Counted from the stretch's first letter, positions 14,822-31,862 are shown. The stretch: DNA of 32,000 nucleotides from Kineococcus radiotolerans SRS30216 = ATCC BAA-149 (GCF_000017305.1 NC_009664.2:4710001-4742000), one strand, 5' to 3'. Notes: generated from the sequence alone by a model not told the origin. Numbers and translations are program-made.

Positions 14822-14884
14822 AGGGATCCTGCCCGACGGACCGGCTGAAGATGACGCATTCCCCCGCTGGACTCGAGCTCGCTC

Positions 14885-14953
14885 ATCGCCAGAAGCGTGA
14901 AGTCGCCGGCCGCCGGCGATAGGGCGCACACCGCGGGATGACCGTGAGGTCAG
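14885..14953 (+). repeat. Array repeat R19 (long form)
   Basis: atcgccagaagcgtgaagtcgccggccgccggcgatagggcgcacaccgcGGGATGACCgtgaggtcag. It contains the perfect palindrome TCGCCGG-CCG-CCGGCGA (14903-14919). Confidence 0.9.
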
Positions 14954-14974
14954 TCAGCTCGAGGAGGCCTTCGT

Positions 14975-15448: not shown

Positions 15449-15460
15449 GAGAGCCTCGAC

Positions 15461-15518
15461 ATCGCCTGATCAAGGTGCCCGCAACGTGCTGGCCAGCGGG
15501 ATGACCGTGACGTCGTCC
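15461..15518 (+). repeat. Array repeat R20
   Basis: atcgcctgatcaaggtgcccgcaacgtgctggccagcGGGATGACCgtgacgtcgtcc. Confidence 0.75.
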
Positions 15519-15571
15519 TGACCCACGTGCCGCCGTCACTTCGACGGTGCAGCCGGCCCGGTCACAAGTGT

Positions 15572-15913
15572 TCAACCCTCCATCGGAGGTGCCTCCTCAC
15601 CCGTCTTCCCGTCAACGACCCTGCGACCATCCAGGGGCTGCGACAGCACGACCTTCACGGGATCTTGGCAATCGTCGTCAGTGTCCCGCTTGGTCGAGAT
15701 TACGGTGATGACCACCTCGGCGTCGGACTCCTCCAGCGTGGTCTCGGGGTCTCCGTCGCAGGTGTCGACCCACAGGTTGAGTTCGTCGTCGGCGACGGAC
15801 CATCCCTCGATGCGCTGAGGACCCCTGCCTTCCCCGTCGGCGCAACCAGTGGCCAGGACAGCCAGCAGGCAGCCGCCCGCGAAGCGCATCAGACGAGGCC
15901 GCGTCGAGGTCAT
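15572..15913 (-). CDS. Putative lipoprotein
   Basis: 113 aa from ATG 15913. MTSTRPRLMRFAGGCLLAVLATG/C is a signal peptide with lipobox LATGC. The mature part is acidic. The longer six-frame ORF reads through repeat R21. Confidence 0.6.
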   Translation of the reverse strand: MTSTRPRLMRFAGGCLLAVLATGCADGEGRGPQRIEGWSVADDELNLWVDTCDGDPETTLEESDAEVVITVISTKRDTDDDCQDPVKVVLSQPLDGRRVVDGKTGEEAPPMEG

Positions 15914-15953
15914 CCGCAACGGTCTCAAGCTCGTGGCGTCAACGCAGCCGTCT

Positions 15954-16029
15954 CGCGGAATTCGACACGACCGCGAGTCACGACCGCCCCGGATCGCGCA
16001 CTGAGCGCGGGATGACCGTGAAGTCGTTG
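15954..16029 (+). repeat. Array repeat R21 (long form, GAATTCGACAC subfamily)
   Basis: cgcggaattcgacacgaccgcgagtcacgaccgccccggatcgcgcactgagcgcGGGATGACCgtgaagtcgttg. Confidence 0.85.
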
Positions 16030-16041
16030 AACTCTGGAGGA

Positions 16042-16454
16042 TCAGCGTGAGCGACGCCGATGCAGCCACCGACTGATCCGAGGGCCCCATCGCGACTCCT
16101 GACGAGCGCGTTGGGCAGCGAGCTCGGCGTTGACGAAGGCGTCGATGGCGGCCTGATTGGCGTCGGCCAGCTGAGGGCGCGTCTGCGCCAGGCGCGCTCT
16201 CAGCCCGGGCAGGTCGTAGAGGCCGGTAGGAGTGAACGCCACCCGCTCGTCCGCGCGGTGGACCTCTTGGACCTCGATGTGCAAGACCTCCGCGTCCTGG
16301 CTCCAAGCAACCTTCCCGTAGACGCCGTCAGTGACGTCGATAGCTTCCATCCAGGCCGCGGCGTCGGAGGGTCGGCAAAGACGAGGGGCTCACGGGTCTC
16401 GTCGAAGACGATGATGGCCCGGGCTGCTGGCGTCACCTGTTCATACTTGCTCAC
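16042..16454 (-). pseudogene. Hypothetical gene split by an apparent 1-nt frameshift
   Basis: ORF 16200..16454 (VSKYEQVTPAARAIIVFDETREPLVFADP...) and ORF 16042..16350 (MEAIDVTDGVYGKVAWSQDAEV...) overlap. The second frame is already open and sensible upstream (PSDAAAW-MEAID), so a 1-nt indel near 16363-16373 joins them into one about 137-aa protein. Confidence 0.45.
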
Positions 16455-16477
16455 GCGTCCGAGGCTGGAGTGCCGTT

Positions 16478-16509
16478 TCGCACGGACGGCGGGATGACCG
16501 GGAGGTCGT
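16478..16509 (+). repeat. Array repeat R22 (short form)
   Basis: tcgcacggacggcGGGATGACCgggaggtcg. Confidence 0.7.
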
Positions 16510-16574
16510 GACCTGAGTCCACATCTGTTCCACGACGTCAGTGCACGAACGGTAGTGTCCGTCGCGCGGTGGGC

Positions 16575-17051
16575 TCATCCACCTGCGCAGGTAGCAGCGG
16601 CGGCCGGGCTAGCGTCCCAGTAGTCGAACTGGTCAACGACATACTTGCCGTCATCGGTGGTGCTCATGTGGACGGCGGCGATGCGGGTGCCGCTCTCATC
16701 CAGTGCTTCGGTCTTGGTGGGGGATGCGAGCAGGGCCTCGATGGCGGCCAGGCGAGCTTCAGCGCCAGCAATTGCTTCGTCTCGTGCTGGTCCGCTGGGC
16801 TGGGTGCAGGTCTGCTCCAGGTAGGCCGTCTCCAGGTCTCGGTTCTCGATCAGCCAGTCCTCGACGCCGGTCACCGTCGTCGGACTGTTGTAGGCCGCGC
16901 CCATGAGGCACCCGGAGCTCGCATTGACCGCTGGCTGCTGGGTTGCGGCCTGCTCCGGAGGCGCGGAGCAGGCGGTGAGCAGGCCGGCGAAAACGGCCAG
17001 GCCGACACCAGTGTGCGCGGGCCGGCTCATGGCGCGTGGGGTAGTCCTCAT
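16575..17051 (-). CDS. Putative lipoprotein
   Basis: 158 aa from ATG 17051. MRTTPRAMSRPAHTGVGLAVFAGLLTA/C carries lipobox LLTAC. The longer six-frame ORF reads through repeat R23. Confidence 0.6.
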   Translation of the reverse strand: MRTTPRAMSRPAHTGVGLAVFAGLLTACSAPPEQAATQQPAVNASSGCLMGAAYNSPTTVTGVEDWLIENRDLETAYLEQTCTQPSGPARDEAIAGAEARLAAIEALLASPTKTEALDESGTRIAAVHMSTTDDGKYVVDQFDYWDASPAAAATCAGG

Positions 17052-17186
17052 ATCGACTCCGACGTGGCTAAGGAGCGGACGGCTCCCTCTGAGACAGGGG
17101 AGAACGAGAGCGTCACCCATGTGGATGCAGGGGGTGACTTCTTGACTGGTTGGCGGGTCGTTCACTCGGCCCGTGGACGTCACAAC

Positions 17187-17256
17187 ATCGACAAGGCCGT
17201 GACGTCGCGGGCCCCGGCGACAGCGCGCACAACGCGGGATGACCGGGAAGTCATGG
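17187..17256 (+). repeat. Array repeat R23 (long form)
   Basis: atcgacaaggccgtgacgtcgcgggccccggcgacagcgcgcacaacgcGGGATGACCgggaagtcatgg. Confidence 0.85.
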
Positions 17257-17431
17257 ACCCGCTCTGACCTGGGCGCCCACACCCGGTTCCCGACCACTCA
17301 CGATGGCGCCACGGGCGAGCGAGGGGTCTTCGATCTCGGCTGCTCCAGGCGATGGCACGTGGCGCCTGTCGCGGCGATGGCCAGCTCAGGGTGCGGTAGG
17401 AAGGGAGGGGGCTTAGAGGCCGCCCGTACCT

Positions 17432-17854
17432 ATGAGAGGAGTGCTTGCAAGGATGGCGATTCTGATGGTGGGCGTCGCTCAGCTGCCTCGTCACCTTGAG
17501 AAGAAGATCACGCCCAAGAACAAGCGGACACGACCGCCAGGTCGCATTCGCAAGCAGGTGATCCACGAAGAGGTGGACAACGCAGGCACTGACGACGGTC
17601 TGGCTACCTTCATTGAGCACTTCCGGCAGTGGCCTGCGGGAGTGGATCTTGGGGAGGTGCTCAGCTGGAACCCCTATGGGGCGACCCGGGTGTATGCGCC
17701 GGCTTCGCCGGAGGTTCTCCGGTTGCGGCAGGAGTTTGAGGCGGCTGTTCGTGTCGCACCTGCGGGCGTCATGCGGGAAGCCGTGGTGCGCGCGCTTGAG
17801 GTCGTCGAAGAGTGCCAGCGCAACGACTACTTCCTGCTCGTCTATCCCGACTGA
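17432..17854 (+). CDS. Hypothetical protein
   Basis: 140-aa ORF from ATG 17432. The Lys/Arg-rich N-terminal third has locally lower GC (about 57% in line 17461-17520). No family recognised. Confidence 0.5.
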   Translation: MRGVLARMAILMVGVAQLPRHLEKKITPKNKRTRPPGRIRKQVIHEEVDNAGTDDGLATFIEHFRQWPAGVDLGEVLSWNPYGATRVYAPASPEVLRLRQEFEAAVRVAPAGVMREAVVRALEVVEECQRNDYFLLVYPD

Positions 17855-17990
17855 TCATTGCAGGAGTGGGTGGAAGCCGCTCACATCCGGTGGGTCTTGT
17901 TCGTCAGCGCTGGCCCGGCAGGCGGGTTGCGGCTGGCTCACCAAGGTGCAGCAAGACGCACGGTTAGCGGTGATCATCACGATCCACGAT

Positions 17991-18069
17991 CGCGCGGAAT
18001 TCGACACGACCGCGGCGTTGCGGGCCGCCGGCGACAGCGCGCACAACGCGGGATGACCGTGAAGCCGAC
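17991..18069 (+). repeat. Array repeat R24 (long form, GAATTCGACAC subfamily)
   Basis: cgcgcggaattcgacacgaccgcggcgttgcgggccgccggcgacagcgcgcacaacgcGGGATGACCgtgaagccgac. Confidence 0.9.
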
Positions 18070-18176
18070 AACCTATCCAAGCGGCTGGTCAAGCAGGCGC
18101 CGATGAGTGGGTGCTGCTCCTGCAGCAGGGTGGCCTGCGGTGAACAATGGACACGGCTGCAGCGCCGCGGTAAGGG

Positions 18177-18362
18177 CTAGGGATCGGCTGGCAGGTGAGC
18201 TCTCCCGGGGAAGTGGTGCCGGGTCCGGCGGTGGTAAGAGCCGATGGTGTCGAGGTGTTTGGTGAGTCCTACGACTGATGCCGCAGTATGGATGACGGTT
18301 GCATCGGATCGCCCCCACTTGGTTGGGGCATGGCTGATGCCCGACCGCCCGTGCTCATCCAC
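18177..18362 (-). pseudogene. Possible remnant of an IS3-family transposase C-terminus
   Basis: The 61-aa ORF ends ...LDTIGSYHRRTRHHFPGRAHLPADP. This resembles the OrfB C-terminus of the intact IS in this window (WIEGTYHRRRRQQALGRLTPIEY). The upstream part is poorly alignable. Weak call. Confidence 0.3.
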
Positions 18363-18783
18363 CGTTGTTCGAGCCGGTCGACTTCACCGTCTGCCCCCGC
18401 CGTGATCGGCGGAGCGCAACGACGGAACACGTCAGGCCGGTGAGGAACGTGACGACGGCAAACGCGTTGGCCGCTACGACCATGAAGCCGAGGAGGATGA
18501 TCACGCCGAGGTTGTAGGACACCGCGTACCCCACGAGCCAGGCGACGGGCACGGAGCCGAGCAGCGTCACGGTGGCCATGAACGATACGTGCGCGACCAG
18601 GGCGGCTACGGGTCGTCGATCGGACCGGCGGATCAGTCTCAGCATGGCTACGATCCCGACGATCGAGGCGACCGCCACAGCGATCTGAGCGGGATAGGTG
18701 GCCGAGTAGTCGATCTGGCCTTCGTTAAGACTCAAGGGAGTCATTCGAAGATCATAAAGAGGGCTCACAGGCTGGACGTACAC
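18355..18783 (-). CDS. Integral membrane protein (about 4 TM helices)
   Basis: 142-aa ORF from GTG 18783, with AGGAG 5 nt upstream (18789-18793 on the - strand). Four long hydrophobic segments. Last gene of the sigma operon. Confidence 0.65.
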   Translation of the reverse strand: MYVQPVSPLYDLRMTPLSLNEGQIDYSATYPAQIAVAVASIVGIVAMLRLIRRSDRRPVAALVAHVSFMATVTLLGSVPVAWLVGYAVSYNLGVIILLGFMVVAANAFAVVTFLTGLTCSVVALRRSRRGQTVKSTGSNNGG

Positions 18784-19384
18784 GTAGGCTCCTGCGGCGG
18801 GAACGATCAGGCGGGCTGAGGCTCAGACCGGCTGAGCATGATCCACGCGACTGGACCACCCGATCTTGCTGCTCGGGTCGCAGGGGTTGAGTTTTCCGCC
18901 GGTCGCGCAGGTGATCCAGGTCCTCCACGCCGGCGGTGAGCAGGGCCGCGGGCTCACCGGAGCGGGCAGTGGCTGCCCCGGTGGTGGGCGCGGTCAGGGA
19001 TGCGCTCACGATGAGGTCTCTCACCCGAGCTGAGCCGGGGAGGTAGGACGGTGGCCCGCCGAGGTCGGCGGTCACCGCCCAGGACTGGTCCGCGCCGGGG
19101 GCGGTGAGGTTCACCGGCATCAGGTCCCTGGTCATCCTGCACGTCAGGGGACCGCTGGTGGCGGCGGCGTCGAACGTCGCCGCTTCGGTACCGGCCGGCC
19201 ATCCGGTGAACTGGAGGGTGACGGCGTCCTGGGTTGAGGTCTCCTCGGTCCACTGGAACGCGCGCCCGGCCACGCTGTACCCGGCCACGCTGTACTCGGC
19301 CACGTCGAGCAGATCAGCAGAGCCCCCAGCGCACCCCACCGGCGAAGCAAGAACGCCCCGTCGGGGTCCGCGGGTGTCGCTCAT
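18752..19384 (-). CDS. Hypothetical protein, paralogue of the C-terminal domain of the adjacent anti-sigma-like protein
   Basis: 210 aa. ATG 19384 overlaps the upstream stop (ATGA). GRAFQW...FDAAATSGPLTCR...APGADQSWAVTAD...GSARVRDLIV aligns with GRQITWW...FDALVANTGVCRF...VAGADQTWAAHTD...GAARVGDLIV of 19381..20454. Confidence 0.6.
   Translation of the reverse strand: MSDTRGPRRGVLASPVGCAGGSADLLDVAEYSVAGYSVAGRAFQWTEETSTQDAVTLQFTGWPAGTEAATFDAAATSGPLTCRMTRDLMPVNLTAPGADQSWAVTADLGGPPSYLPGSARVRDLIVSASLTAPTTGAATARSGEPAALLTAGVEDLDHLRDRRKTQPLRPEQQDRVVQSRGSCSAGLSLSPPDRSRRRSLRVRPACEPSL
18789..18793 (-). promoter_or_regulatory. Shine-Dalgarno AGGAG for the 18783 start
   Basis: The reverse complement of CTCCT at 18789-18793 is AGGAG, 5 nt upstream of GTG 18783. 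Confidence 0.5.
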
Positions 19385-20454
19385 CGTCCTTCGGCGGCCG
19401 GGAGCCCGCTGGCACGCAGGTCAGCGACCGCGGCCGTCAGCAAGGTGGTCAGTTCGCTGACCGCGTCCTGCGCGGGGTGCAGCACGGTGATGCCGACGAT
19501 GAGGTCCCCGACGCGGGCGGCGCCGGAGACGAAGGGCAGTCCGTTGCTGTCGGTGTGCGCGGCCCAGGTCTGGTCGGCTCCGGCGACGGTGATGGCGAAG
19601 GGTGTGGTCGGGTCGGTGAACCGGCAGACACCGGTGTTGGCGACGAGGGCGTCGAAGGCGATCGGTCCCCCGCCGGTGGCCCGGCCGGTGACGACCAGGT
19701 CCACGCTGGCCTGGTTCGGCCAGCGCTGGATCTCGTTCCACCAGGTGATTTGCCGCCCGGCCACCATCGGTGGGTCGAAGGGCCGTGAACTGCAGGCCTG
19801 CCCCATCACCGTCGGGCTCTTGGGGTACTGCCCGCGGTCGCCGAGGACCACTAGTCCGGCAGGCAGGGCTGCCCGGGTCCGTGTCATGTCGGGGATGTCG
19901 TAGGCGACGGGGACGTCCGGGTTGGCCAGCCCCACCGAGGAACCGGCTGTCGAGTCGACCGAAGGGGTGCTGGCTGGTGACTTGCTGAGGGTGGAAGTCC
20001 CCGCCGCCGTCTGCGCCGGAGTCTGCGCCGCGGTTGGTGCCGGGGTCTGGGTCGGGGTTCCGGTAGGTGTGGGCGTCAGCGAGGCCGCCGGGACGGTGCG
20101 CACGCTGGGCTCGGCGCTCCAGTGCAACCCTAGGGGGAGGGCGATGACAGCGGCCAGGGTGAAGGCGCCTGCGACGGCACGGGTGCGTCGGCGGTGCTGG
20201 ATGCGTCGGCGCAGCTGGTGGCGGGTGCCGGCGTGCAGGCTGGCCTCGTCAATGCGGCCGGCGTGGAGCTCCTCGTGCAGGGCGCTCTGCAGGTGGTGCT
20301 GCAGCTGGAGTAGGTCGTCGAGGTCAGCAAGCTCATCGTGGTCGGTGTCGGGGCGGTCGGTGTCGGCGCGGTCGGTGTTGGGGCGGTCGGTGTCGAGGTG
20401 GTCGGCGTCGTCCTCGCCGGGGGTGGGGTGCTGGTCACGAGGTCGCTGGGTCAT
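19381..20454 (-). CDS. Membrane protein, putative anti-sigma factor with extracytoplasmic domain
   Basis: 357 aa. Its start overlaps the ECF sigma stop by 4 nt. Acidic N-terminus with DTDRP-type pentapeptide repeats, one TM helix AVAGAFTLAAVIALPLGL, a Thr/Pro linker, and a C-terminal domain duplicated in the next gene. Confidence 0.65.
   Translation of the reverse strand: MTQRPRDQHPTPGEDDADHLDTDRPNTDRADTDRPDTDHDELADLDDLLQLQHHLQSALHEELHAGRIDEASLHAGTRHQLRRRIQHRRRTRAVAGAFTLAAVIALPLGLHWSAEPSVRTVPAASLTPTPTGTPTQTPAPTAAQTPAQTAAGTSTLSKSPASTPSVDSTAGSSVGLANPDVPVAYDIPDMTRTRAALPAGLVVLGDRGQYPKSPTVMGQACSSRPFDPPMVAGRQITWWNEIQRWPNQASVDLVVTGRATGGGPIAFDALVANTGVCRFTDPTTPFAITVAGADQTWAAHTDSNGLPFVSGAARVGDLIVGITVLHPAQDAVSELTTLLTAAVADLRASGLPAAEGR
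20341..20410. repeat. 15-bp tandem repeat (about 4.5 units) inside the CDS
   Basis: GTCGGTGTCGGGGCG / GTCGGTGTCGGCGCG / GTCGGTGTTGGGGCG / GTCGGTGTCGAGGTG / GTCGGCGTCG. On the - strand this encodes HLDTDRPNTDRADTDRPDTDH. Confidence 0.8.
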
Positions 20455-21020
20455 CGGGACTCCTTCGCGGCGTCGGTGTTGTGGTCCAGGAGGCGACGCA
20501 GGTTGCGCAGGCCGCGGTAGGCGTGGCTGCGGACGGTGGCTTGGGAGCAGTGCAGGAGGTTGGCGATCTCGGCGTCGGGCAGGCCTTCGTACAGGCGCAG
20601 GACGAGGGTGGCCCGTTGCGCGTCGGGTAGGCGGCGCAGCAACGTGAGGTAGTGCTGCCGGTCGCCGTAGCCGGCGCTGTCATCGAGGAGGGGAGCATCG
20701 GGCAGGTCGGCGGGGTCGCTGACCTGCTCGCGGCGCCAGGGGCGGCGGTGGTGGGAGACGACGGCGTTGACGACCATGCGGTTCAAGTAGGCCGAGGGGT
20801 CTTCGACGGCCTGGATGCGTGACCACTTCAGGACGCAGCGGGCCAGGACGTCCTGGACGACGTCCTCAGCTTGGTGGGGGTCTTTGAGCAGGCCGCGGGC
20901 GAGGCGGACCATCTCGGGGCCCTTCCAGGTGACCAGGGAGTCCAGGTCCCAGACCCCGGCTTGTGCCGGTTCAGGGCGCGAGGAGGCGTCGGCTCCGGCG
21001 GGACCTTGCGAACGTCTCAC
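20451..21020 (-). CDS. ECF-type sigma-70 family sigma factor (SigE-like subgroup)
   Basis: 189 aa from GTG 21020. Region 2 is AEDVVQDVLARCVLKW and region 4 is LPDAQRATLVLRLYEGLPDAEIANLLHCSQATVRSHAYRGLRNLR. Confidence 0.85.
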   Translation of the reverse strand: MRRSQGPAGADASSRPEPAQAGVWDLDSLVTWKGPEMVRLARGLLKDPHQAEDVVQDVLARCVLKWSRIQAVEDPSAYLNRMVVNAVVSHHRRPWRREQVSDPADLPDAPLLDDSAGYGDRQHYLTLLRRLPDAQRATLVLRLYEGLPDAEIANLLHCSQATVRSHAYRGLRNLRRLLDHNTDAAKESR

Positions 21021-21113
21021 ACTCTCCTAACGCTGCCCGGAAGCGGGCTGTTGCGGTTGGAAGGACTTCGTTTTGACGTCACTTCCGCTGTCGACTTCCG
21101 GCACCCCTGGGTC

Positions 21114-21182
21114 ATCGACAAGACCGCGACGTCGCCGGCCGCCAGCGACAGCGCACAACGCGGGATGACCGTGAAGTCGTAG
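21114..21182 (+). repeat. Array repeat R25 (long form; last clear copy)
   Basis: atcgacaagaccgcgacgtcgccggccgccagcgacagcgcacaacgcGGGATGACCgtgaagtcgtag. Confidence 0.9.
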
Positions 21183-22164: not shown

Positions 22165-23133
22165 TCAACGGCGGCCCCTGCTCAGCTTGTGCTGCGTCTC
22201 AGGCGCACCCCGCCGGAGCCCATCCTGTTGGCCTCGTCGCTGCTGAATCTTTAACCGCTGGTGCTGCTCGCGGCGCTCACAGAAGGTCGCCAGGTGCTCG
22301 GCGGCCTTGGCCGCGGTGTCCAGCGGCAGGGCCTGGTCAGGACTCGTCGGGCCGGCCATGACCGGTCGCCAGGTGTCGCTGTCACGGAAAGCGACGATGA
22401 GGACGCCGTCGCGGTCGACGACCTGGCTGTGGAGGTTGGGGGCGCCGGGTCCGGCGAGGACGAGGACGGGCCGGACGGGCGTGTGGATGCCGTGGCTGCG
22501 CAGCAGGGCTGCGGTCTTGGTGGCGCCTTGGCGGGCTTGGCGGAGCTTGGACTCCAAGCCGTAGGTGTCTTCCAGGCTCTGCTGGCGGCTGAAGAGGGCT
22601 TTGACTTCGAGGGCGAAGCAGCCTTTGGGGGCCAGGACGACGTGGTCGACGTCGAAGTGCTCGAAGGGGATCGCGCTGATGACGCCGTACACGCCGTCGG
22701 TGGTGCGCAGCTCGTCCCCGACGTCGCCCTCGACGCCGCGGCCGAGCCGGGCCAGGAGGCTGCCGTCGGCCAGGGCAAGGAAGCCGGCCCAGCCGACGGC
22801 GGCGGCGCCGAGGAAGACGCCGAGGATGCCGGCCTGCAGCTGCGGGTGCTCCCGGGCGCCGTAGCTGAAGGAGACAGCCGCGAGAGCGAAGGCGGCGAGG
22901 AGCTTGGTGAGGTCACGCCAGTTAGCGCGCAGCAGGTGCCGGCGGCGTGCGCGGAGGTCCTGCTCGAGCCAGGAGGCGCGTCGGCGTCGGTAGCGAGGGT
23001 AGGGCAGGCGCAGCTGGCCGTATCCGCGGCGATCACGCAGCCATCTCACCAGCGCAGCATCGACGTGGTGCGGGCTGTGCTTGAGGTCTACACCCTCACC
23101 CGCGTCGGTCTCTCGTCCCCGCTGGTCTTTCAC
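22165..23133 (-). CDS. NERD (nuclease-related domain) protein with N-terminal TM helices
   Basis: 322 aa from GTG 23133. Two hydrophobic helices (LLAAFALAAVSF, GILGVFLGAAAVGWAGFLAL) precede FEHFDVDHVVLAPKGCFALEVK (22621-22670 region). This matches the NERD pattern D.DH.vi.p.G.f.iE.K. Confidence 0.7.
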   Translation of the reverse strand: MKDQRGRETDAGEGVDLKHSPHHVDAALVRWLRDRRGYGQLRLPYPRYRRRRASWLEQDLRARRRHLLRANWRDLTKLLAAFALAAVSFSYGAREHPQLQAGILGVFLGAAAVGWAGFLALADGSLLARLGRGVEGDVGDELRTTDGVYGVISAIPFEHFDVDHVVLAPKGCFALEVKALFSRQQSLEDTYGLESKLRQARQGATKTAALLRSHGIHTPVRPVLVLAGPGAPNLHSQVVDRDGVLIVAFRDSDTWRPVMAGPTSPDQALPLDTAAKAAEHLATFCERREQHQRLKIQQRRGQQDGLRRGAPETQHKLSRGRR

Positions 23134-23228
23134 CTACCCGGGACCTCTCGCCCGCACTGGCGCTCCGCCCCTGTACAGCGCTCGCGACAGGACGCAAACG
23201 CCCGTAGAAGTCAGCCCGTTGGGACAAG

Positions 23229-25028
23229 ATGAGACGCGTGGATGCTCATGTCTCCCTGGCCTTGGCCTTGCAGTCCGGCCCCGGCACGGTCGCTGCCTTG
23301 CTCGGGGCCGGTGCGTCGGCGTCGGCGGGGCTGCCCACGGCGTGGGAGGTGCGGCAGGAGCTGATCCGCCGGGCCGCGCTCGCTGCCGGTGAGGCGGTGC
23401 CGACCGACCCCGAAGCATGGTGGTCTGATCGCGGTGGCAGCGCAGGCTACGACGGGCTGCTGGCGGAGCTGGCGCCCACGCCGGCGGGGCGGCGCGACTT
23501 GCTGCGGGGCTTCTTCGAGCCCACCGAGGACGGGCGCGAACGGGGGGAGAAGCGTCCCGGTGCGGTGCACCACGCGCTGGCCCAGCTGGTGGTCACTGGC
23601 GCGGTGCGGGTGGTACTGACGTTGAACTTCGACCGCCTCATCGAGACCGCGCTGCGCGAGGCGGGTATCGAGCCGGTCGTCATCGACTCTCCGGCCGCGG
23701 TGGAGGGGATGGAACCGCTGCAGCACCAGCGAGCGGTGGTGGTGCACCTGCACGGTGACTACCTCTCACCCGCGACGCTGAACACCCCCGAGGAGCTCAA
23801 TACCTACCCGGCTGCGCTCAACGCCTTGATCGATGAGGTCTTCGACCGTTATGGCCTGCTCGTCATCGGCTGGTCAGCGACGTGGGACAACGCCCTCCGA
23901 GCGCGCCTGCAGGCCGCCCGCAGCCCCCGCTACGGCACCTGGTGGATCGACCAGTTCCCCCTAAGCGGGCACGCCCAGGACCTGGCCAGCGCCCGTCGGG
24001 CCGCGGTGGCTATCGCAGATGCGGGGGTAGAGCTGGCGCGGGTGGTCGACGCGCTGCAGGCGCTCGCGGAACAGCGCCTGCAGGATCCCGTGGGGCCGCC
24101 CGCGGCTGTGGCCTTCGCCAAGCGAGCCCTGGCCGGGGCGAATGTGGCCATTGGTTTGCATGACACCCTCAGCCGGGAGACCGACCGGGTAGCGAACCTC
24201 GACGCTGTCCGCTCAAATGAGTTCAACGTGGGCGGTAATCAGCTGGCGGCCGTGTACGCCCGTCGTCGGGATCAGATTCTCGCCGGCACCGCCACGTTAA
24301 GCGCGCTGGTGGCTACCAGCGCTTACTGGGGAAATGAGCGCACCGATGCTTGGTGGTTACCCACCATCACCCGCTCGGTGCCACGCGAGATCGTCGGTGG
24401 ACTCACGCCGTTGATCGGCCTGCGTTTGGGAGTGGCGACGCTGCTGACCCACGCCGCCGGCATCGCTGCCACCGCCGTCCGTCGCGACGAGCTGGTTGCC
24501 CACTTGGCCGCCGGTAACCGCCTCACGTGGAATGACCAAATCCTAGAGGCGGCTGCGGTGCTGACCCCGGCGGTGTTGTGGGCAGAAGACGGCGCCGACG
24601 CCGAACTGCGCCTGCGAGAGTACTTGCGGCCGCTGCTGCAGAACCACCTCGCCCTCGGCGCCGCCGGGTATGAGCACGCGTGGGAGGACTGGGCCGCAGT
24701 GTGTTACCTCACCCGGCGGCAGGCGGGCACCACTGTGGCTGCTCCCCTCATGGTCATCGACGGCAACGAACCGTACGCGCCGGCCTTGAAGCGACTCAAA
24801 GGGCGAATCAAGGATTTACCGGAGAACACGGGCCTGTTCGCTCATGGCAATCTTGGCGGCAGGATCGGGCTGGCGTGGCCGCTCCTCGAACGCTACGAGA
24901 GTCAGGTCGCCGAGTGGGCCAAGGAGCTCGACCGGAACCACATTACTCCCTTTGGTGCCGGCATCGGAGGAGGCGTCATTCCTACAGGGCCGCGTTACCC
25001 CGGTCGTCCTGATTTGGCGTGGCGCTGA
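23229..25028 (+). CDS. SIR2-like (SIR2_2 type) domain protein, probable NADase-type defence effector
   Basis: 599 aa. LLGAGASASAGLPTAWEV (23301-23339), VVLTLNFDRLIE (Asn at 23625-23627) and VVHLHGDY (His at 23751-23753) reproduce the GAG.S..GlP.W / TTNYD / hLHG blocks of prokaryotic SIR2 defence proteins. The C-terminal roughly 350 aa is unrecognised. Confidence 0.8.
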   Translation: MRRVDAHVSLALALQSGPGTVAALLGAGASASAGLPTAWEVRQELIRRAALAAGEAVPTDPEAWWSDRGGSAGYDGLLAELAPTPAGRRDLLRGFFEPTEDGRERGEKRPGAVHHALAQLVVTGAVRVVLTLNFDRLIETALREAGIEPVVIDSPAAVEGMEPLQHQRAVVVHLHGDYLSPATLNTPEELNTYPAALNALIDEVFDRYGLLVIGWSATWDNALRARLQAARSPRYGTWWIDQFPLSGHAQDLASARRAAVAIADAGVELARVVDALQALAEQRLQDPVGPPAAVAFAKRALAGANVAIGLHDTLSRETDRVANLDAVRSNEFNVGGNQLAAVYARRRDQILAGTATLSALVATSAYWGNERTDAWWLPTITRSVPREIVGGLTPLIGLRLGVATLLTHAAGIAATAVRRDELVAHLAAGNRLTWNDQILEAAAVLTPAVLWAEDGADAELRLREYLRPLLQNHLALGAAGYEHAWEDWAAVCYLTRRQAGTTVAAPLMVIDGNEPYAPALKRLKGRIKDLPENTGLFAHGNLGGRIGLAWPLLERYESQVAEWAKELDRNHITPFGAGIGGGVIPTGPRYPGRPDLAWR

Positions 25029-25164
25029 CGGCAGCAGGATCCGACCAGCCTGTGGAAATCAGCAGTGACTGACGCGGTGACTAGGGCCCAGATGCTGCGC
25101 CTGTAGTCGTCCTGATGCTCAACGCTTTGGTCTGCGGTGCACCTCGCACGACGTCGGACTCTGC

Positions 25165-28100
25165 TTACTGCTCCAGCTCCTTCTGGACAAGGATCGCCAC
25201 TGACGACCCGCGTCGAGCGAGGTTGTCGACCAGTTGCAGTAGAGCCCGACGCAGCGATCCAGGTTCGTGCTCCTCCCGCACCACATCTCGCAACCAGGTC
25301 TCGACGTATTGACTACGCCCCAGAATCCGAGACCCGTCGGGCCCAATCATCCTCAGGACGAGGCCCATTGCCTGGGGCGTACGTTCCAGCGCGTTGGCGG
25401 CCAGGCAGAGCAGCAGCCGGTCGACGAGGTCGGGGGACGGTTCGGACGCCGTCACCCAGCGATCGATCACGCGGGCGTACTCATCTGGCGGCCAGGAGGC
25501 TCCGGACTGCGGTATCGGTAGTAGCGCTTCGTCCAGTTTACGTCTCGATGCTTCTTGTCGGGACCGGCGTGATGCTTCCCGTGCAGACCGCGCCGCGGGC
25601 AGCAGCTGATCAAGCAGTCTGGGCCAGACCTCGAACGACCGTTGTCCCTGCGTGGTCGACACGGCCTGGAGCGCGAGTGACTCAACGACAAAAGCCAGCT
25701 CCTCGGGGGCAGGGGTGAACGCCGTGAGATAGCGGTCGAGGATGTCGTCATTGCCGTCGAGCACCGCGGAGGAGACCCAGAGACTGATCTGCTGACACCA
25801 GTAACGCGATCCGCGAAACCCGCGGGGGATCGCATCGGTGGGTCTACGCCTTAGGTCATACTCGACAAGCGCGGCCAGCGTTCGTCGAGCGCCCTCGCCG
25901 TGCGGGCAGTCACAACGTGCCGCCGCCCTTAGCCCGGGTAGCGCGTCCGCGGCGGTGTCGTAGTTCAACAGGGTGTCGGGATCGGTAAGCGCCTCCTCAA
26001 GAGGTTGCCTCAAACGCTTGCGGGGACGTTCTTGACCGTTCCACGGACCAACTCCTGCAGCCAGGATCCACTCAAGGTAGACGGCCATGGCGGTGGTGTG
26101 TCGTGCGTGAGTCCTCTGCTTCGTGCAGTCGGTGTCGTTCCACGCTGCGGCCAGCCCTTGCAGGAGGCGGTCTCTGACCTGGCGGGACTGACTGGCCGAC
26201 AGCATCTCTACTATGGAGGTGAACTGATCCTTATCTTTGCCGCATGCATCCAGGAGGAGGTCGTCGCTGAGCAGGCGGGTGATCGCGGTCGCGAGTGACC
26301 GGTCGGCGCCGAAGTCCCAACTCATGTCGCGGTCAGCGTCCGCGAATTTGGGCGTGTTCTCGTTCACGAGGCGGAGAAGTGTTTCCACGGCGGTGGGCAG
26401 CATCTGTAGTTCTGCCTCGCCGCCACGGGCCGCCTGCACTACGACGGCGGCCGCAGCCATCGCCAAGGTCTCGGCAGGGTTGAAGGCGATGCCGAGCTCG
26501 GAGTCGCTGCCCTCGTCGCGCACCATGGTCCCAACGGTGGTGTACAGCTGCGCTGCCGAGCCGGGCTGGTCTACTGATTCGTCGCGGATCTTCATGGCGG
26601 CGAACAGGTGGTTGGACAGCTCGAGACGGGTGCGGGCCTCACGGCCGCCGCCTTCTTCCAGTTGCTGTTGAAGATCAGAGGGCAACTCGACTGAAACCTC
26701 CAGCTGGTTCGGCTGGTTCTCGACCGGGTTGAGCCGGTAGTACTCGATCCGAAACATGGACGCGCGCCGCCGAGCGACGGCCAGCTCCGGGGAGCCCTCA
26801 GCGGGTTCACCTTGGCGAGCACGGGAGTTTGTCAAGAACCGTTCACCGGTCGCTTCGAGTTCACGGCGACGTTCCTCGTCGCCACCTAGTACGAGCTGTA
26901 TGACGACACCGTCGACCTGGGTGCTCAGCCCGGGCTCGCCGGTGTCCCACCCTGCACCACCACCGAAGATTCGGGACGTTTCCATGTCCCAGACGTCCGG
27001 CTCTTGGAGGAAGGGGTCTAGCAGTGCACCGGAAGTCGATGGGTTAATGAGCAGGAGGGAGTACCCCACGGCTGCCAGTGCCGGACTCACACCTGCGAGC
27101 AGGACATCGTCCAGGATTTGTTCTAGAGGCCGCTTGCTCACCTGTGCAACTGCCCATCGGCGCAGCGCCATTAGAGCCGACATGGCCGGGTAGGGCCCGG
27201 TACCAGCCCGCTGGTACCACCCCCAGGCAGAAGCGGGACCGCGATAGGTGCGGGCGTTCGACCAGTGCGGGAAGGTGAGTTCGAGAGCCAGTGGACGCTG
27301 CGGCCTGGAGAACGAAGCTTCTTCGCGTCCTCGGTGCCGGGTGGCGGCATCGACGACGGCACCCACCAGCCTCAGACCGTGGGCAGGTGAGTGGTCCAAC
27401 AGGACAGCGAAGGGCCCCCAGTCGGGCCCAGTCAAACCGAAACCGCGGCGGCGTGCGGTGCGGTGCGAGTGGTCGCGGATACCGTCCTCGTCGCCTGGAA
27501 CGCCCAGCCGTCGGCGGCCTCGCAGGGTGCGGCGCGGGGTCATCGGGAGCCGGCCTCGTGCACCATCCATGTCCAGCGGCCAGTCGAGGTAGTAGCAGCC
27601 AGCCAGTTCCAAGAGCAGATCGGGGTTGTCTCGGGCCAACGCGGCTGCAACGTCCGGATCTTCGATGATTGCTTCGAGGTCGTCGCCGCGTTCGACAGCT
27701 CGCTCGAGAAGCGGGCTGGCTTCGGCGGGGAGGTTCTGGCCGAGCAAGCCGAGGACGGCAAGGGCGGACTCGTAACGCTGCCCATACGTGGCATCCCCAG
27801 CCCAGCTGACCGTCGCGGCGCACAACCGCGATGAGTCGATGCCGAAGTCGCCCGGCCGCAGGCGGTGGAGTTCCAGACTGCGGAGCCATCGTTCCGTCAG
27901 CAACACGGCGGACGCTGCCAACCCTTCCGACAACTCCGCGGCGGTAGCGATCAGCAGTCCGATCACCGGGGCAGCCAGCACGCTGTTGAGAACGAGACTG
28001 GCACCATCGAGCGTCATGCGGTCGGGCGTCGTACGGTCGGTCGTCGCGAAACGAGTCGTCACCGCGATGAGCCGCGCGACATCCAAAAGACGCGGTTGTC

Positions 28101-30261
28101 CGGCGGTGTTGGGGACCAGCTCCTGTAGGTCGAGCCGCTGCAGACCGAGCCCCTGCAGGACAACCCCGGGGTCAGCCAAAGACAAAGCCGACTCGTACGG
28201 GACGTCACTCCAGCGGTCGCCGTCGCGGGCCGCGAGCCGTTCACAGACTGACAGTTGCTGCTTCCAGACAGCGCGCAGCTCTGCCGGGTCGCTCGCTGCG
28301 GACAGGGTGCGTTGTCCGGCCAAGCGGACTGCTCGCAACAGCGGACGAGGGGAGTGAACCTGTTCCAAAAGCGCCGGATCGTCGGCCAGGACCATGGCTG
28401 CTGCGTAGTCGGCCAGGACGTCGTGGGAAAACCGGTACGTCCGGCCGTGGCGCGTCAGGACGTCGTCGCTGACGAGGCCGCCCACTGCGGGGCCAGGAAC
28501 CGTTGACAGGGATGTGCTGCCCGTGCCGGTGATGACGGCTTCCGCCGCCTCCTCCCAGGCGCGGCTTCGCTCATGGGGTAATCCCTGCCCTGGACGCATC
28601 CCCTCGGAGCGTCGGACGACCGTGTTGTAGAAGAGGTCGAGGATGGTTTCCTCACCGATCGGGTCCTGCTCGGGCAGGGCACTGCCTGACCGGACGATGA
28701 GATCGACGAGGTACGGCCGGCGCAGGAGCTGATTACTGCGAGGGTGACGCAGAAGAGGCGCCAGGAGAGGGAAGGCCTGCTCCACCTCGTTCATCTCGTC
28801 ATCGGTGAGGTCGCCCACCGGCACGTGTGAAGTCAATCGATCACCGAGATGATGGGTCAGAGGGTCGGCAGCTTCTCGGCGGCAGGTGATGACGACGGTC
28901 CATGGCGGACTCTTCCGTCCGCCCGTGGGTGCCGCGTCCAGCAGGAACTCCAGCAGCCGTCCTGCGTCGGCCAGGGCGTTCTCGGCCCCGTCAATGAGCA
29001 GGATGCGAGACCCCGCGGTGGGTGCGGCTGCCAGCGCTGTGGGCAGGTGGGGGATACCCAGCTCGTCCTGAAGGCTGGTGGGACTGTCGCCGCCTCGCAC
29101 AGCAAGATTGATGGCCACCACCGTCGCGTTCTCGCCCTGCTCTTGCACACAGCGACGAGCCAGGACCGATTTACCCACACCGGCGCTTCCTGAGATCAGC
29201 ACCAGCCCACCGCCCGCAACAGCCCGGTCGATCTGATCGACAACGCGTGCGCGTTCCAGGCGCAGGGTCCCGCCGATCTGGTCGACGGTGCGTGCCAGCT
29301 CATCCGCCGACGCGGTGAGGACACGCTCGAGCTCGTGCCTGTGCTGGGGAGCGGTGTCCAGGGCGACACCTGCGGCCAGGAGGGCGGCCCGGAGCATGGG
29401 CACGTTGATGACGCCCGCGTTCGGTCCCCAGCCTTCAGCCAGCGTACGCAGCTGCGCGAAGAGCGAGCGCACCGACGGCGCCGCGGAGGGGAAGACCTGC
29501 GCGAGGCGGCTCAAAGTGTCAAGGAAGTCGCGCCCGTCCTCACCGATCTCCATGATCCACACGTGCAGATGACGCAGAAGGTCGTGGACGAGCCGGTCCA
29601 CCCCCAGCTCGTCGACCTCTAGGCCCTGTCCGGTGCTTTCCTGGTCGCCTCGTTCGGCTAGGACCCGCTCGACGGCGGCCTTGACGTGGTCGTACCGACC
29701 ACGGACCTCGGCGCTCATCGCTCCCGGCATGAGCAGCCCGAGGAAGGTGTCAACGCTGGTATGAGCCCGGGCGATGACGGTCAACCGGTGCAGCTCTTCC
29801 AGCTGGGCCCTCGGGCCGCCGGCGGCGAGGCCTAGACGGAGGCTGCCTGCGTCCAGCTCGTCGTGTCGGGTGGACAGCTCCTGCAGACACTGTCCCAAGA
29901 CGTCGAGGAACGCGCGGTCTGAGGGGGTGGGAGCCGCCCGGCGCTTGACCTGGTAGTCGATGCTCGATGGCGATGCGCCCTGATTGGAGGTCAGGACCAG
30001 GTCGTCCAGAGCGTGGCCTGCTACGCGCCGCTGTAGGGCGATGCTGGTGGGGGCTGTGTCCAGCCCTGGCATCAAGTCCCCGGTCAGCAACCGTCCCAGC
30101 GCGAGTGCGGCGAGGGTGTACTCCTCGATCGTGCCCGCCCCGCCGGTTGCCTCAGGCGACACCTGTGCCACACCCACTCGCCCCCCGTGAACGACCACAT
30201 GACCTGCTCTGATCGGCGACCCGTCCGATGGGGCGGGCCGCCAAGCCCTACGACAGATCAT
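25165..30261 (-). CDS. Giant STAND/NACHT-type P-loop NTPase with nuclease-like N-terminal domain and long helical C-terminal region
   Basis: Walker A LISGSAGVGKSVLA (29167-29190), Walker B RILLIDGAENAL (28981-29007) and VVITCRRE (NACHT-like hhhTSR). The N-terminus reads GGAGTIEEYTLAALALGRLL...ALDDLVLTS...IDYQVKRR (29941-30015), a PD-(D/E)xK / Cap4-DUF4297-like pattern. About 1,100 aa of helical sequence lie downstream. The ORF is open to 30414. ATG 30261 or GTG 30171/30177 (after GGGGGG) are more plausible starts. Confidence 0.8.
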   Translation of the reverse strand: MICRRAWRPAPSDGSPIRAGHVVVHGGRVGVAQVSPEATGGAGTIEEYTLAALALGRLLTGDLMPGLDTAPTSIALQRRVAGHALDDLVLTSNQGASPSSIDYQVKRRAAPTPSDRAFLDVLGQCLQELSTRHDELDAGSLRLGLAAGGPRAQLEELHRLTVIARAHTSVDTFLGLLMPGAMSAEVRGRYDHVKAAVERVLAERGDQESTGQGLEVDELGVDRLVHDLLRHLHVWIMEIGEDGRDFLDTLSRLAQVFPSAAPSVRSLFAQLRTLAEGWGPNAGVINVPMLRAALLAAGVALDTAPQHRHELERVLTASADELARTVDQIGGTLRLERARVVDQIDRAVAGGGLVLISGSAGVGKSVLARRCVQEQGENATVVAINLAVRGGDSPTSLQDELGIPHLPTALAAAPTAGSRILLIDGAENALADAGRLLEFLLDAAPTGGRKSPPWTVVITCRREAADPLTHHLGDRLTSHVPVGDLTDDEMNEVEQAFPLLAPLLRHPRSNQLLRRPYLVDLIVRSGSALPEQDPIGEETILDLFYNTVVRRSEGMRPGQGLPHERSRAWEEAAEAVITGTGSTSLSTVPGPAVGGLVSDDVLTRHGRTYRFSHDVLADYAAAMVLADDPALLEQVHSPRPLLRAVRLAGQRTLSAASDPAELRAVWKQQLSVCERLAARDGDRWSDVPYESALSLADPGVVLQGLGLQRLDLQELVPNTAGQPRLLDVARLIAVTTRFATTDRTTPDRMTLDGASLVLNSVLAAPVIGLLIATAAELSEGLAASAVLLTERWLRSLELHRLRPGDFGIDSSRLCAATVSWAGDATYGQRYESALAVLGLLGQNLPAEASPLLERAVERGDDLEAIIEDPDVAAALARDNPDLLLELAGCYYLDWPLDMDGARGRLPMTPRRTLRGRRRLGVPGDEDGIRDHSHRTARRRGFGLTGPDWGPFAVLLDHSPAHGLRLVGAVVDAATRHRGREEASFSRPQRPLALELTFPHWSNARTYRGPASAWGWYQRAGTGPYPAMSALMALRRWAVAQVSKRPLEQILDDVLLAGVSPALAAVGYSLLLINPSTSGALLDPFLQEPDVWDMETSRIFGGGAGWDTGEPGLSTQVDGVVIQLVLGGDEERRRELEATGERFLTNSRARQGEPAEGSPELAVARRRASMFRIEYYRLNPVENQPNQLEVSVELPSDLQQQLEEGGGREARTRLELSNHLFAAMKIRDESVDQPGSAAQLYTTVGTMVRDEGSDSELGIAFNPAETLAMAAAAVVVQAARGGEAELQMLPTAVETLLRLVNENTPKFADADRDMSWDFGADRSLATAITRLLSDDLLLDACGKDKDQFTSIVEMLSASQSRQVRDRLLQGLAAAWNDTDCTKQRTHARHTTAMAVYLEWILAAGVGPWNGQERPRKRLRQPLEEALTDPDTLLNYDTAADALPGLRAAARCDCPHGEGARRTLAALVEYDLRRRPTDAIPRGFRGSRYWCQQISLWVSSAVLDGNDDILDRYLTAFTPAPEELAFVVESLALQAVSTTQGQRSFEVWPRLLDQLLPAARSAREASRRSRQEASRRKLDEALLPIPQSGASWPPDEYARVIDRWVTASEPSPDLVDRLLLCLAANALERTPQAMGLVLRMIGPDGSRILGRSQYVETWLRDVVREEHEPGSLRRALLQLVDNLARRGSSVAILVQKELEQ

Positions 30262-30285
30262 CTTGCCCGAGGGGCTCCGTCTTGA

Positions 30286-31243
30286 CGCCCTCATCCCAGA
30301 TACGTCCACGATCGACGCGGTTGTCTCGATGAGCGCGCCCAACGGCACGAGCAGGCCGCCGTGTGGGCGGTGGGGGACCGCTACGCCGCGGCGCGCGGCA
30401 TCGCGGACGGGCATCCCGCTGGGTCAGCTGATCCTGGTCGGGCACCACAGCGAGGGCCGGGCCCGGCGAGACGCGGCCCGGATGGGCGCGCACATGGATG
30501 CCAGCGTGGCCCACACCGACGCAGCCGAGGAGGCGCGGCGGGCGGCGCGGATCGCGAAGGCGGCCACCGATGCCCGCTACAACCCGGTGACGGTGGCGAA
30601 GCGAGTGGAGCGGTTGACCCCCAGGGTGGGGGCCGAGGAGAAGGCGCTCGCGCACTGCGAGCGCGCGGTCGCTGCCGGGCAGGCCGCTGCTGCGGCCCTG
30701 AGCGCGGTTGGCGGCCCGGACTCAGACCTGGATCGGGGGCAGGTGCAGCCCGACCGTCCTCGGGCTGGGGAGAGCGCGCAGGGGGCCGCGGTGCGGTATG
30801 GGCTGAACATGGCCGCCCACGCGGCCGCAGTCGCTGAGCGGTTGCAGGCGCACCGTGCCGACCTGGCCCACTGGCAGGCGGTGCGTGCCCGGCAGGTCGC
30901 GGATGGGACGGCCACCGGCGTCGGCCGGCACAACGTGGCGGCCGGGGATCAGGTGCGGGTGCGTGGGCACTGCTACGAGGTGGTGCGGGCGAACGCGAAG
31001 ACGGTGACGGTGCTCGGCATGTTCGGGCCCCGCGCGACCCTGTGGCAGGAGGTCCAGGAGCACCGGCGGGGAGCAGGCGGGACCGGTGACCAGGCGAGGG
31101 CGGGGGGGGTGACTCAACCCCTGTTCACGGCCCGTCAACCTCCGGCCGCGTCGGGGCCGGGCGTCCCGGCCGCGCAGTCGTGGCCCTGTGACGATCCAAA
31201 TTTCTTCGGTACCTCCCGCGCCTGCGCATCTGCGGGACCCTGA
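30286..31243 (+). pseudogene. DUF3560-like gene, 5'-truncated and frameshifted
   Basis: IPLGQLILVGHHSEGRARRDAARM...ARYNPVTVAKRVERL matches the conserved GQPILVGHHSE..R / Y.P.TVA.RI..L core of DUF3560 proteins. The N-terminal about 130 aa of the family is absent. The sensible upstream sequence (LDERAQRHEQAAVWAVGDRYAAARGIADG) is in another frame, with a 1-nt shift near 30410. Confidence 0.5.
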
Positions 31244-31862
31244 GACAAACGGGCGGGCCGCGTGGAATTGTGACCGAGTGCAACAGCTCATCACTGCGCC
31301 CTTCTTCCGGCGACTGGCCGCCCGGCTCATCGACCTCGGCTTCGCCCTGGTCCTGACCTTCGCCCTGGCCGTGGTCGTGGGCCTGATCTCAGGTCTCGTG
31401 ACCGCCTTCAGCGGTGGCCTCGACGAGGATGGACTGGCGATCGCGCTGCTGGTCTGGCTCTGCTACTTCCTGGCCTACGTCGCGCTGGAGTGGTTTCTGG
31501 TGGTCAACCGCGGCGGGCAGACGCTGGGCAAGGGGCTGATGGGCATCAGGGTGGTCCGTGCATCGGGCACCGGCGTCGCCCCCGCTTCGTCCTTCGTTCG
31601 CCTTTTCGTGTTCTTCATCCCGTTCTTCTTCGCCTCGCAGGCTGGGGGGTCGACGTCGGCCGGGTGGGAGGCGCTGGCCACTATCGGGTTCTTGTGGTCC
31701 ACAGCCACACTGATCATGGTGTGCATCCGGCCAGGCGGTCGGCGTGGGGTTCACGACTACTTGTCGGGCACTCGGGTCGTGCTCGCTCCGAGGCGCAAAG
31801 TGAACCTGCGGAAGGACATTCCGATGATGGTGCCTAGGCGGGTTGACCTCACCAAGCGCTGA
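31188..31862 (+). CDS. RDD-family membrane protein
   Basis: APFFRRLAARLIDLGFALVLTFALAVVVGLI ... LVVNRGGQTLGKGLMGIRVV ... GRRGVHDYLSGTRVV is the RDD-domain pattern with 3 TM helices. The start is uncertain: GTG 31188 overlaps the previous ORF by 56 nt, and GTG 31278 is more compact. Confidence 0.7.
   Translation: MTIQISSVPPAPAHLRDPETNGRAAWNCDRVQQLITAPFFRRLAARLIDLGFALVLTFALAVVVGLISGLVTAFSGGLDEDGLAIALLVWLCYFLAYVALEWFLVVNRGGQTLGKGLMGIRVVRASGTGVAPASSFVRLFVFFIPFFFASQAGGSTSAGWEALATIGFLWSTATLIMVCIRPGGRRGVHDYLSGTRVVLAPRRKVNLRKDIPMMVPRRVDLTKR

Follow-up and report, generated by a model that had tools for sequence, protein, structure and literature searches.

A small candidate defence island in Kineococcus radiotolerans with three putative stand-alone immune genes, including a divergent Avs4-like STAND NTPase

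We analysed a 32,000-nucleotide stretch of the genome of Kineococcus radiotolerans SRS30216 (= ATCC BAA-149; GCF_000017305.1, NC_009664.2:4710001-4742000), hereafter the window, in which positions are counted from the first letter. A sequence-only reading of this high-GC DNA (about 69% GC) had marked out three neighbouring large genes, coding for a NERD-domain protein, a SIR2-like protein and a giant P-loop protein, as a defence island. A scan of the window for open reading frames (ORFs) showed that all three genes are real and lie on the strands and in the order claimed, with the NERD ORF at 22165-23133 (minus strand), the SIR2 ORF at 23229-25028 (plus strand) and the giant ORF at 25165-30414 (minus strand). 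Most of 16 NERD homologues support a GTG start at 23049, 28 codons inside the longest ORF. The gene then occupies 22165..23049 (minus strand) and encodes 294 residues, as does the corresponding NCBI entry (P0121), instead of the 322 residues of the longest ORF. The 95-bp gap first described between the divergent NERD and SIR2 genes is correct for the longest ORF only; with the supported start the divergent intergenic region measures 179 bp (23050..23228). The SIR2 gene (23229..25028, plus strand) encodes 599 residues, and the convergent gap of 136 bp between its stop codon and that of the giant gene (25029..25164) is as originally stated. No sigma-70-type consensus was found in the NERD-SIR2 gap by a scan that did not include actinobacterial promoter types, no terminator-like site was called in the 136-bp gap, and promoter and terminator scans of the island gave no signal exceeding the expectation from shuffled sequence.

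The giant gene had been described as encoding a P-loop protein of roughly 1,700 residues, and such a protein is indeed encoded there. Its longest ORF reaches 30414, and the gene call on a Logan contig gives 1677 residues from a GTG at 30198 (25165..30198, minus strand). This GTG (or a start at about 30168) is more likely to be the start than the ATG at 30261 proposed earlier, which is probably too far upstream because the alignments of 24 homologues start at 'VSPEATGG'. The 90%-identity cluster of the giant protein contains Logan-derived sequences only, while the SIR2 and NERD proteins are 100% identical to K. radiotolerans entries at NCBI; it is possible that the reference genome lists the giant gene under another annotation or as a pseudogene. 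Several Logan assemblies contain this locus.

A word-indexed search for relatives of the giant protein found 48, about 36 of them full-length proteins of about 1650 residues. The close full-length homologues that carry a name are all from actinobacteria (Sphaerisporangium, Kitasatospora, Kineosporia, Couchioplanes, Saccharothrix, Lentzea and Streptomyces) and are 33-52% identical to the protein. Motifs, together with NCBIfam and PDB profile matches, delimit a STAND NTPase module at residues about 311-650 (28249..29268, minus strand). Within it the Walker A motif G337-x-A-G-x-G-K343 (GSAGVGKS; 29167-29190, minus strand), the Walker B motif D403-G-A-E406 (in LLIDGAE), the sensor-1 residue R440 and the winged-helix motif F590-x-H592-D593 are invariant in 24 homologues, such that every element of the STAND core (Walker A, Walker B, sensor-1 Arg and winged-helix His) is present. 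The protein had been called a NACHT-type NTPase. This label holds in so far as the protein is a STAND NTPase; its match to Pfam NACHT (E = 0.08, 13.2 bits) does not reach the gathering score of 26.7, and its matches to AAA_16 and AAA_22 are likewise under the cut-off. Relatives of the protein match these families better, with STAND, NACHT and nSTAND families of Pfam matched by 17-23 of 24 members and NACHT itself by 22 of the 24 (best E = 1.2e-6). The matches of individual relatives are weak, and those to nSTAND3, nSTAND5, AAA_16 and AAA_22 are about as good as those to NACHT, so that they single out no one clade within STAND. Avs4-like is the better label.

The likeness to Avs4 was seen both by sequence profile and by fold, and in both halves of the protein. 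Compared with the PDB, the family profile found Avs4 (8dgf) as its best match (E = 7e-5), with a second, weak matching stretch in the sensor. An AlphaFold2 (AF2) model of residues 1-720, with a predicted local distance difference test score (pLDDT) of 86, gave 8dgf as the top Foldseek match (E = 2e-12, 709 columns), with Avs3 and animal NLRs as the next matches. The remainder of the protein (residues 651-1677; 25168..28248, minus strand) is modelled with a pLDDT of 83.6 as an alpha-solenoid, the putative sensor, for which Foldseek again placed chain A of 8dgf first (E = 4.5e-11, template modelling score 0.57, 1163 columns), the only matches after it being generic solenoids with E values of 7e-5 or weaker and scores of about 0.23. 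When 1.84 billion representatives were searched exhaustively by phmmer with the sensor as query, 329 matches were obtained, most of them proteins of 1600-1750 residues in which the sensor is similarly placed. Four of six distant sensor relatives match the Avs4 model of PADLOC within its sensor region (positions 716-929; E = 1e-13 to 4e-7), and three of the six match PDC-M54A across the N-terminal and NTPase region. By fold and remote homology the sensor is thus of the Avs4 type, which is a statement about architecture and not evidence for its ligand.

In its overall plan the giant protein resembles EcAvs4 (PDB 8dgf), a portal-sensing protein with an Mrr-like nuclease: the two are similar in size (1677 and 1587 residues), and both begin with an N-terminal effector, which is followed by a STAND NTPase and then by a large sensor built as an alpha-solenoid. 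They differ in that aligned identity is about 12%, the region preceding the NTPase is about 120 residues longer in the giant protein, and no sequence match to an Mrr or Cap4 family was found for the effector of the giant protein. On the strength of these profile matches and predicted models, we regard the giant protein as remotely homologous to Avs4 over its entire length, though no member of the family by curated thresholds, and as a new, divergent putative receptor of the Avs4 type. In Lee et al. 2026 (PMC13581612) the count is 589 STAND clades, 198 of them associated with defence, 684 sensor clusters and at least 90 Avs families, so that the giant family may already be among those tabulated.

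Invariant residues and AF2 topology delimit the N-terminal effector domain of the giant protein at residues 12-135 (29794..30165, minus strand), a segment common to 111 of 292 collected proteins, distant ones included. Its invariant residues are E26, D65-D66 and Q83-x-K85, the latter two lying in a DD..QVK stretch of the translation (29944-30006, minus strand). The domain is modelled as helix-strand-strand-strand-helix with pLDDT above 80; E26 lies in the first helix, D65-D66 at the start of one strand and Q83-x-K85 on the next. This is the arrangement of a PD-(D/E)xK nuclease of the 'QxK' kind found in Mrr and Cap4. Weighing it against the lack of a sequence match and the change of QxK in a distant clade (see below), we give about even odds to the domain being such a nuclease.

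Four loci encoding homologues of the giant protein contain integrases, PIN, Fic and AbiJ genes, a serine recombinase, SUKH immunity genes and type I restriction-modification (RM) genes. At the Saccharothrix locus (L008, 11910-16628), a P-loop protein of 1572 residues is encoded directly downstream of the giant homologue; it is unrelated to the giant protein by phmmer and has an N-terminal 'VDD...LLQAKR' motif of its own, so Saccharothrix may carry two STAND-like nuclease proteins in tandem.

In Avs4, sensing of the phage portal leads to tetramerisation through the ATPase, by which the N-terminal (Mrr) nuclease domains are united and activated (bioRxiv 10.64898/2026.04.30.721860; 10.64898/2026.08.25.746987). 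The triggers, activities and defence phenotypes that we suggest for the three proteins are drawn from analogies of this kind. In the giant protein the C-terminal alpha-solenoid would bind a conserved structural protein of the phage, with the portal as the leading candidate, and binding would permit ATP-dependent tetramerisation through the STAND NTPase. The N-terminal domains would meet in the tetramer, and a PD-(D/E)xK-type nuclease could thereby be switched on that degrades DNA and aborts the infection.

The SIR2 protein matches Pfam SIR2_2 above the gathering score (E = 1.8e-10) and consists of a SIR2 domain (residues about 20-290) and a conserved C-terminal domain of some 300 residues that is presumed to be sensory or regulatory. 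It matches the PADLOC model PDLC05061, which represents the candidate PDC-S65, with E = 1.7e-141, residues 3-559 aligning with profile positions 15-585 of 592; a second model, PDLC05060, matched with E = 5e-91. As the match to the PDC-S65 profile runs over its full length, and we see no difference at the level of the family, the gene is already catalogued as the single-gene candidate PDC-S65. The earlier statement that the trio matches no named system does not hold for this gene and was half right overall. The active site lies in a TLNFD...HLHG stretch (N133, D135 and H175; 23619..23756, plus strand), and these three residues and G26-A27-G28 are invariant among 21 SIR2 relatives, which indicates an intact core for NAD binding and catalysis. 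The C-terminal half (residues about 300-599) also contains conserved residues (H311, D312, Y366-W367-G368, W376, R419 and W485) and is unassigned, having matched nothing.

The SIR2 protein is no deacetylase sirtuin of the CobB type, as it scores 21.5 bits against the NCBIfam CobB cut-off of 320 and has a single cysteine, and therefore lacks the zinc ribbon (Cys4 module) of those enzymes. Its closest solved relative by sequence is a 'Sir2 superfamily protein' of 584-587 residues (8jkz/8in8; E = 7e-13), which we take to be pAgo-associated and which matches in the SIR2 domain only; the next-nearest PADLOC sub-families are likewise pAgo-associated SIR2 models (E = 1e-23). SIR2-APAZ, ThsA of Thoeris, DSR1/DSR2 and SIR2-HerA resemble the protein in that the catalytic core (N133, D135 and H175) is conserved. 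They match nothing beyond the SIR2 domain, and the PADLOC ThsA and Aga_SIR2 models cover just residues about 108-242. DSR proteins exceed 1000 residues, compared with about 600 here. No pAgo, ThsB/TIR or HerA family was found among the genes of the window scanned with Pfam. With neither a partner family among these genes nor a full-length match, we rejected assignment of the gene to Thoeris, SIR2-HerA or a short pAgo SIR2-APAZ system.

Relatives of the SIR2 protein are widespread. A scan of one genome per species yielded 584, and we examined the best 80 loci, which come from many phyla. When the neighbouring genes were clustered, no cluster was common to more than seven of the 80 loci, and the common clusters were subunits of type I RM systems; the gene therefore lacks a conserved partner, as is expected of the single-gene candidate PDC-S65. 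In six of the 80 loci the relative is embedded in an operon of the form hsdM-hsdS-SIR2-hsdR. The 145 untested PDC candidates were defined by just such embedding, inside BREX, DISARM or type I RM operons (bioRxiv 10.1101/2024.01.29.577857). The name PDC-S65 was found neither in the literature searched nor in the accessible portion of the supplements to that paper. The hsdS-hsdR insertions lie at about 7000-15000 of loci L033, L046, L066, L069, L072 and L074, from proteobacterial, acidobacterial and other genomes. Viral contigs of IMG/VR carry 26 SIR2 relatives. The closest homologue outside Kineococcus, from Geodermatophilus (64% identity), is encoded between two integrases with neither a NERD nor a giant gene nearby.

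We suggest that the SIR2 protein could act as a single-chain sensor-effector in which the C-terminal domain would keep the SIR2 domain switched off for as long as no phage cue is received. Once released, the SIR2 domain would hydrolyse NAD+ and the infected cell would no longer support replication of the phage.

The third protein matches Pfam NERD (PF08378) with E = 2.1e-8 and 35.1 bits, above the gathering score of 22.1. An arginine-rich N-terminus (net charge +12) is followed by two hydrophobic helices and then by the NERD domain. The two transmembrane helices claimed for this protein correspond to hydrophobic segments at residues about 75-93 and 101-123, both of which are kept in 15 of 17 sequences by hydropathy. 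The catalytic core, DVDHVVLAPKGCFALEVK (22600..22653, minus strand), contains a D..ExK motif (DVDH...EVK), and the family alignment shows no variation at E135, D163, H164 and E176, with K178 conserved in at least 90% of sequences. A cytoplasmic orientation of the nuclease domain is predicted from the positive N-terminus and the helical hairpin. The family has few members (28 homologues at E = 1e-5 or better), and those with a name are actinobacterial. K. radiotolerans has a paralogue of 88% identity (P0122) on a second contig of 182,572 bp, probably a large plasmid.

The neighbourhoods of NERD relatives suggest a role in defence for this uncatalogued membrane family. One relative adjoins QatABCD with a NACHT gene, TacAT and an insertion sequence element, and another adjoins a type IIG RM gene and TIR-SLATT; other neighbours include type IIG RM, a CBASS E1-E2 gene (E = 3e-212), an OLD/Gabija-like ATPase, Rhs toxins and integrases. 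The nearest named comparison is HEC-02, a defence candidate of Payne et al. made up of an ABC ATPase and a NERD protein (bioRxiv 10.1101/2024.01.29.577857). HEC-02 shares with the protein studied here a NERD nuclease domain of the PD-(D/E)xK type and a defence-island context. It differs in that the K. radiotolerans protein has the arginine-rich N-terminus and the two-helix membrane hairpin, and has neither an ATPase or helicase partner nor a PADLOC model. A NERD nuclease tethered by its hairpin to the cytoplasmic face of the membrane might cut incoming phage or plasmid DNA, or might serve as an abortive-infection effector.

The three genes differ in composition. Their GC content is 0.713 (NERD), 0.689 (SIR2) and 0.663 (giant), and their third-position GC is 0.86, 0.81 and 0.75, respectively, compared with 0.85-0.88 in flanking genes; composition is atypical only in the giant gene and, to a lesser degree, in the SIR2 gene, which look foreign. 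Three 60-nucleotide lines from the island that had been cited as AT-richer than the neighbouring array of repeats do have the values claimed (0.60, 0.583 and 0.567, against 0.75 for the line at 7441), but they are not representative. Averaged over all such lines, GC is 0.674 inside the island and 0.691 outside it (Mann-Whitney p = 0.001). We rejected the idea of a strong GC island, since the gap is just 1.7 percentage points and the giant gene alone stands out.

Whether the three genes belong together can be judged from their co-occurrence elsewhere, which the sequence-only reading had itself named as a check. Our sample comprised 130 loci, namely 107 encoding SIR2 relatives (the 80 genome loci, the 26 viral contigs and the Geodermatophilus locus, L093), 19 encoding NERD relatives and four encoding homologues of the giant protein. 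No pair of the three genes was found together at any of them: no NERD or giant relative lies within 8-10 kb of SIR2 in the 107 SIR2 loci, no SIR2 or giant relative was found in the 19 NERD loci, and neither SIR2 nor NERD occurs at the four giant-protein loci.

These counts bear on two readings in which neighbouring genes form a system. In the first, which had been put forward as a SIR2-NACHT sensor/effector pair, the giant STAND protein would sense the phage and activate the SIR2 NADase in trans. The two genes are adjacent, with a gap of 136 bp, and SIR2 domains are known as effectors fused to Avs proteins such as Avs5 (PMC11897194). They are convergent, however, and therefore form no operon and are not co-transcribed; the giant protein has a conserved effector-like N-terminal domain of its own, the SIR2 protein matches a single-gene candidate over its full length, and co-occurrence is nil in both directions (0 of 107 and 0 of 4 loci). 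We do not find support for such a pair and think it most improbable. The second reading takes NERD and SIR2 as a divergent pair that combines a nuclease with an NADase under a common regulatory region, as their arrangement across a short intergenic region (95-179 bp, depending on the NERD start) would allow. Against it, NERD relatives are absent from all 107 SIR2 loci and SIR2 relatives from all 19 NERD loci, and the third-position GC of the two genes differs (0.86 vs 0.81). We give this divergent pair equally little credence.

The data fit instead an alternative that the sequence-only reading had also offered, that of three independent single-gene systems. We favour the view that three independent immune genes, each acting alone, make up a small defence island in this region and are neighbours by chance, and put its probability at roughly 0.7; the trio itself is then no new multi-gene system. 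This view draws on the domain content of the three proteins, their conserved catalytic residues, the fold similarity of the giant protein to Avs4 and the absence of conserved linkage, and it upholds the defence-island proposal in the sense of guilt by association.

Several observations weigh against this view of three immune genes. PADLOC, the other check named by the sequence-only reading, recognised just one of them: the SIR2 gene is PDC-S65, which is an untested candidate family, the giant protein falls far under the Avs4 cut-off (E = 6e-4, 15 bits), and the NERD protein matches no PADLOC family at E = 0.01 or better. The NCBIfam Avs4 model (NF041815) matches the giant protein in the NTPase region only (E = 1.1e-6), with 26.2 bits against a cut-off of 1500, and likeness of the sensor fold is no proof of the same ligand. 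No credible Pfam match to the N-terminal domain was found at E values up to 10 with single sequences and 28 members, nor any PDB sequence match by phmmer or with a 28-sequence profile. In a distant clade (alignment A7) the TGGGG, E, FQ and VDD elements of the domain are kept and QxK is replaced by (A/G)xR; either the catalytic lysine has been swapped for arginine there, or the domain is no nuclease in that clade. Such a change is hard to square with nuclease activity throughout the superfamily. The defence link of the NERD family comes from about 10 distinct neighbourhoods, some of which include an aconitase or an ABC transporter. Finally, no integrase or tRNA that might bound a mobile island was found in the window, and no integrase among the scanned genes flanking the island. 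Given the low scores against the Avs4 hidden Markov models, we speak of a divergent actinobacterial Avs4-like clade, and given the lack of a sequence match and the change of QxK in the distant clade, we call the N-terminal domain a putative nuclease only.

These points also leave some room for a reading in which at least one of the genes is not immune, such that NERD would be a membrane nuclease with a housekeeping task, DNA uptake or repair for example, the giant protein a signalling or regulatory NTPase, and their clustering coincidental. Many actinobacterial STAND proteins are signalling or regulatory NTPases. The NERD protein lacks a PADLOC match, its gene has the codon composition of a native gene (third-position GC 0.86), and some of its relatives adjoin ordinary metabolic genes. 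On the other side, no output domain of a regulatory kind, whether DNA-binding or other, is present in the giant protein, the match of its sensor is specifically to Avs4, and mobile or defence genes are present in all four contexts of its homologues; the NERD family, being small, patchy and found mostly in variable, defence-rich regions, does not have the pattern of a housekeeping gene. We therefore regard a non-immune member of the trio as unlikely, though less so than either of the paired systems.

The least charted parts of the island are the membrane NERD family and the N-terminal effector domain of the giant protein. A more far-reaching proposal about both, which we hold only tentatively and consider rather doubtful, is that the membrane NERD protein, with its about 28 homologues, represents an uncatalogued stand-alone defence protein that destroys incoming phage or plasmid DNA on the inside of the membrane, and that the N-terminal domain of the giant protein is an unclassified effector module, the 'TGGxG...E...DD...QxK' module, belonging to an Avs4-like superfamily of about 300 representative clusters.

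If the giant protein is what its profile and fold matches suggest, then a radiation-resistant actinobacterium carries an Avs4-type pattern-recognition receptor missed by standard annotation, its PADLOC and NCBIfam scores being far under the thresholds, and portal-sensor-like STAND proteins would thus reach the high-GC Gram-positive bacteria, in which phage defence is little studied. The island offers three single-gene constructs (a PDC-S65 candidate, a divergent Avs4-like protein and a membrane NERD protein absent from defence catalogues), which would allow a comparison of phage ligands between the giant protein and E. coli Avs4.

As regards the wider setting, we rejected the placing of the island on a plasmid, for which PLSDB gave neither a near-DNA match nor a match to the NERD protein, and on a phage, as relatives of the giant protein were not found in IMG/VR. 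The island is followed on its right by genes for a DUF3560 protein and an RDD-family membrane protein (30263-31243 and 31188-31862). DUF3560 is typical of actinobacterial conjugative elements. To the left lies an array (1400-21180) whose repeat core, GCGGGATGACCGTGA, occurs in 24 copies between 1924 and 21174 when up to two mismatches are allowed, all on the plus strand. The island had been described as free of this repeat, and none of the 24 copies lies within 22165-30414, where 0.2 copies would be expected by chance. The core is part of an element of about 70 nucleotides with the consensus ...CATCGnCAAGACCGCGACGTCGCCGGCCGCCGGCGACAGCGCGCACAACGCGGGATGACCGTGAAGTCG, which recurs at least 24 times, always on the plus strand, between short genes of both strands. 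We rejected the repeat as a hairpin, an attC-like site or a known RNA, on folding z-scores of -0.8 to +1.4 and the absence of an Rfam match; no Rfam family was found in the window as a whole. Genes of the array encode an IS3-type transposase (2557-3429), extracytoplasmic function (ECF) sigma factors (830-1375, 7789-8568 and 20451-21020), a leucine-rich repeat protein (8889-9863) and a WapI-like immunity protein (12002-13060), which hints that the array holds immunity cassettes of polymorphic toxins or is a similar conflict-system array. Near its right end, an ORF of 357 residues (19381-20454, minus strand) contains a 15-nucleotide tandem repeat, GGTCGGTGTCGGGGC, in 4.7 copies at 20340-20428 and overlaps the stop codon of the ECF sigma gene at 20451-21020 by 4 nucleotides; it may encode an anti-sigma factor with a repetitive linker.

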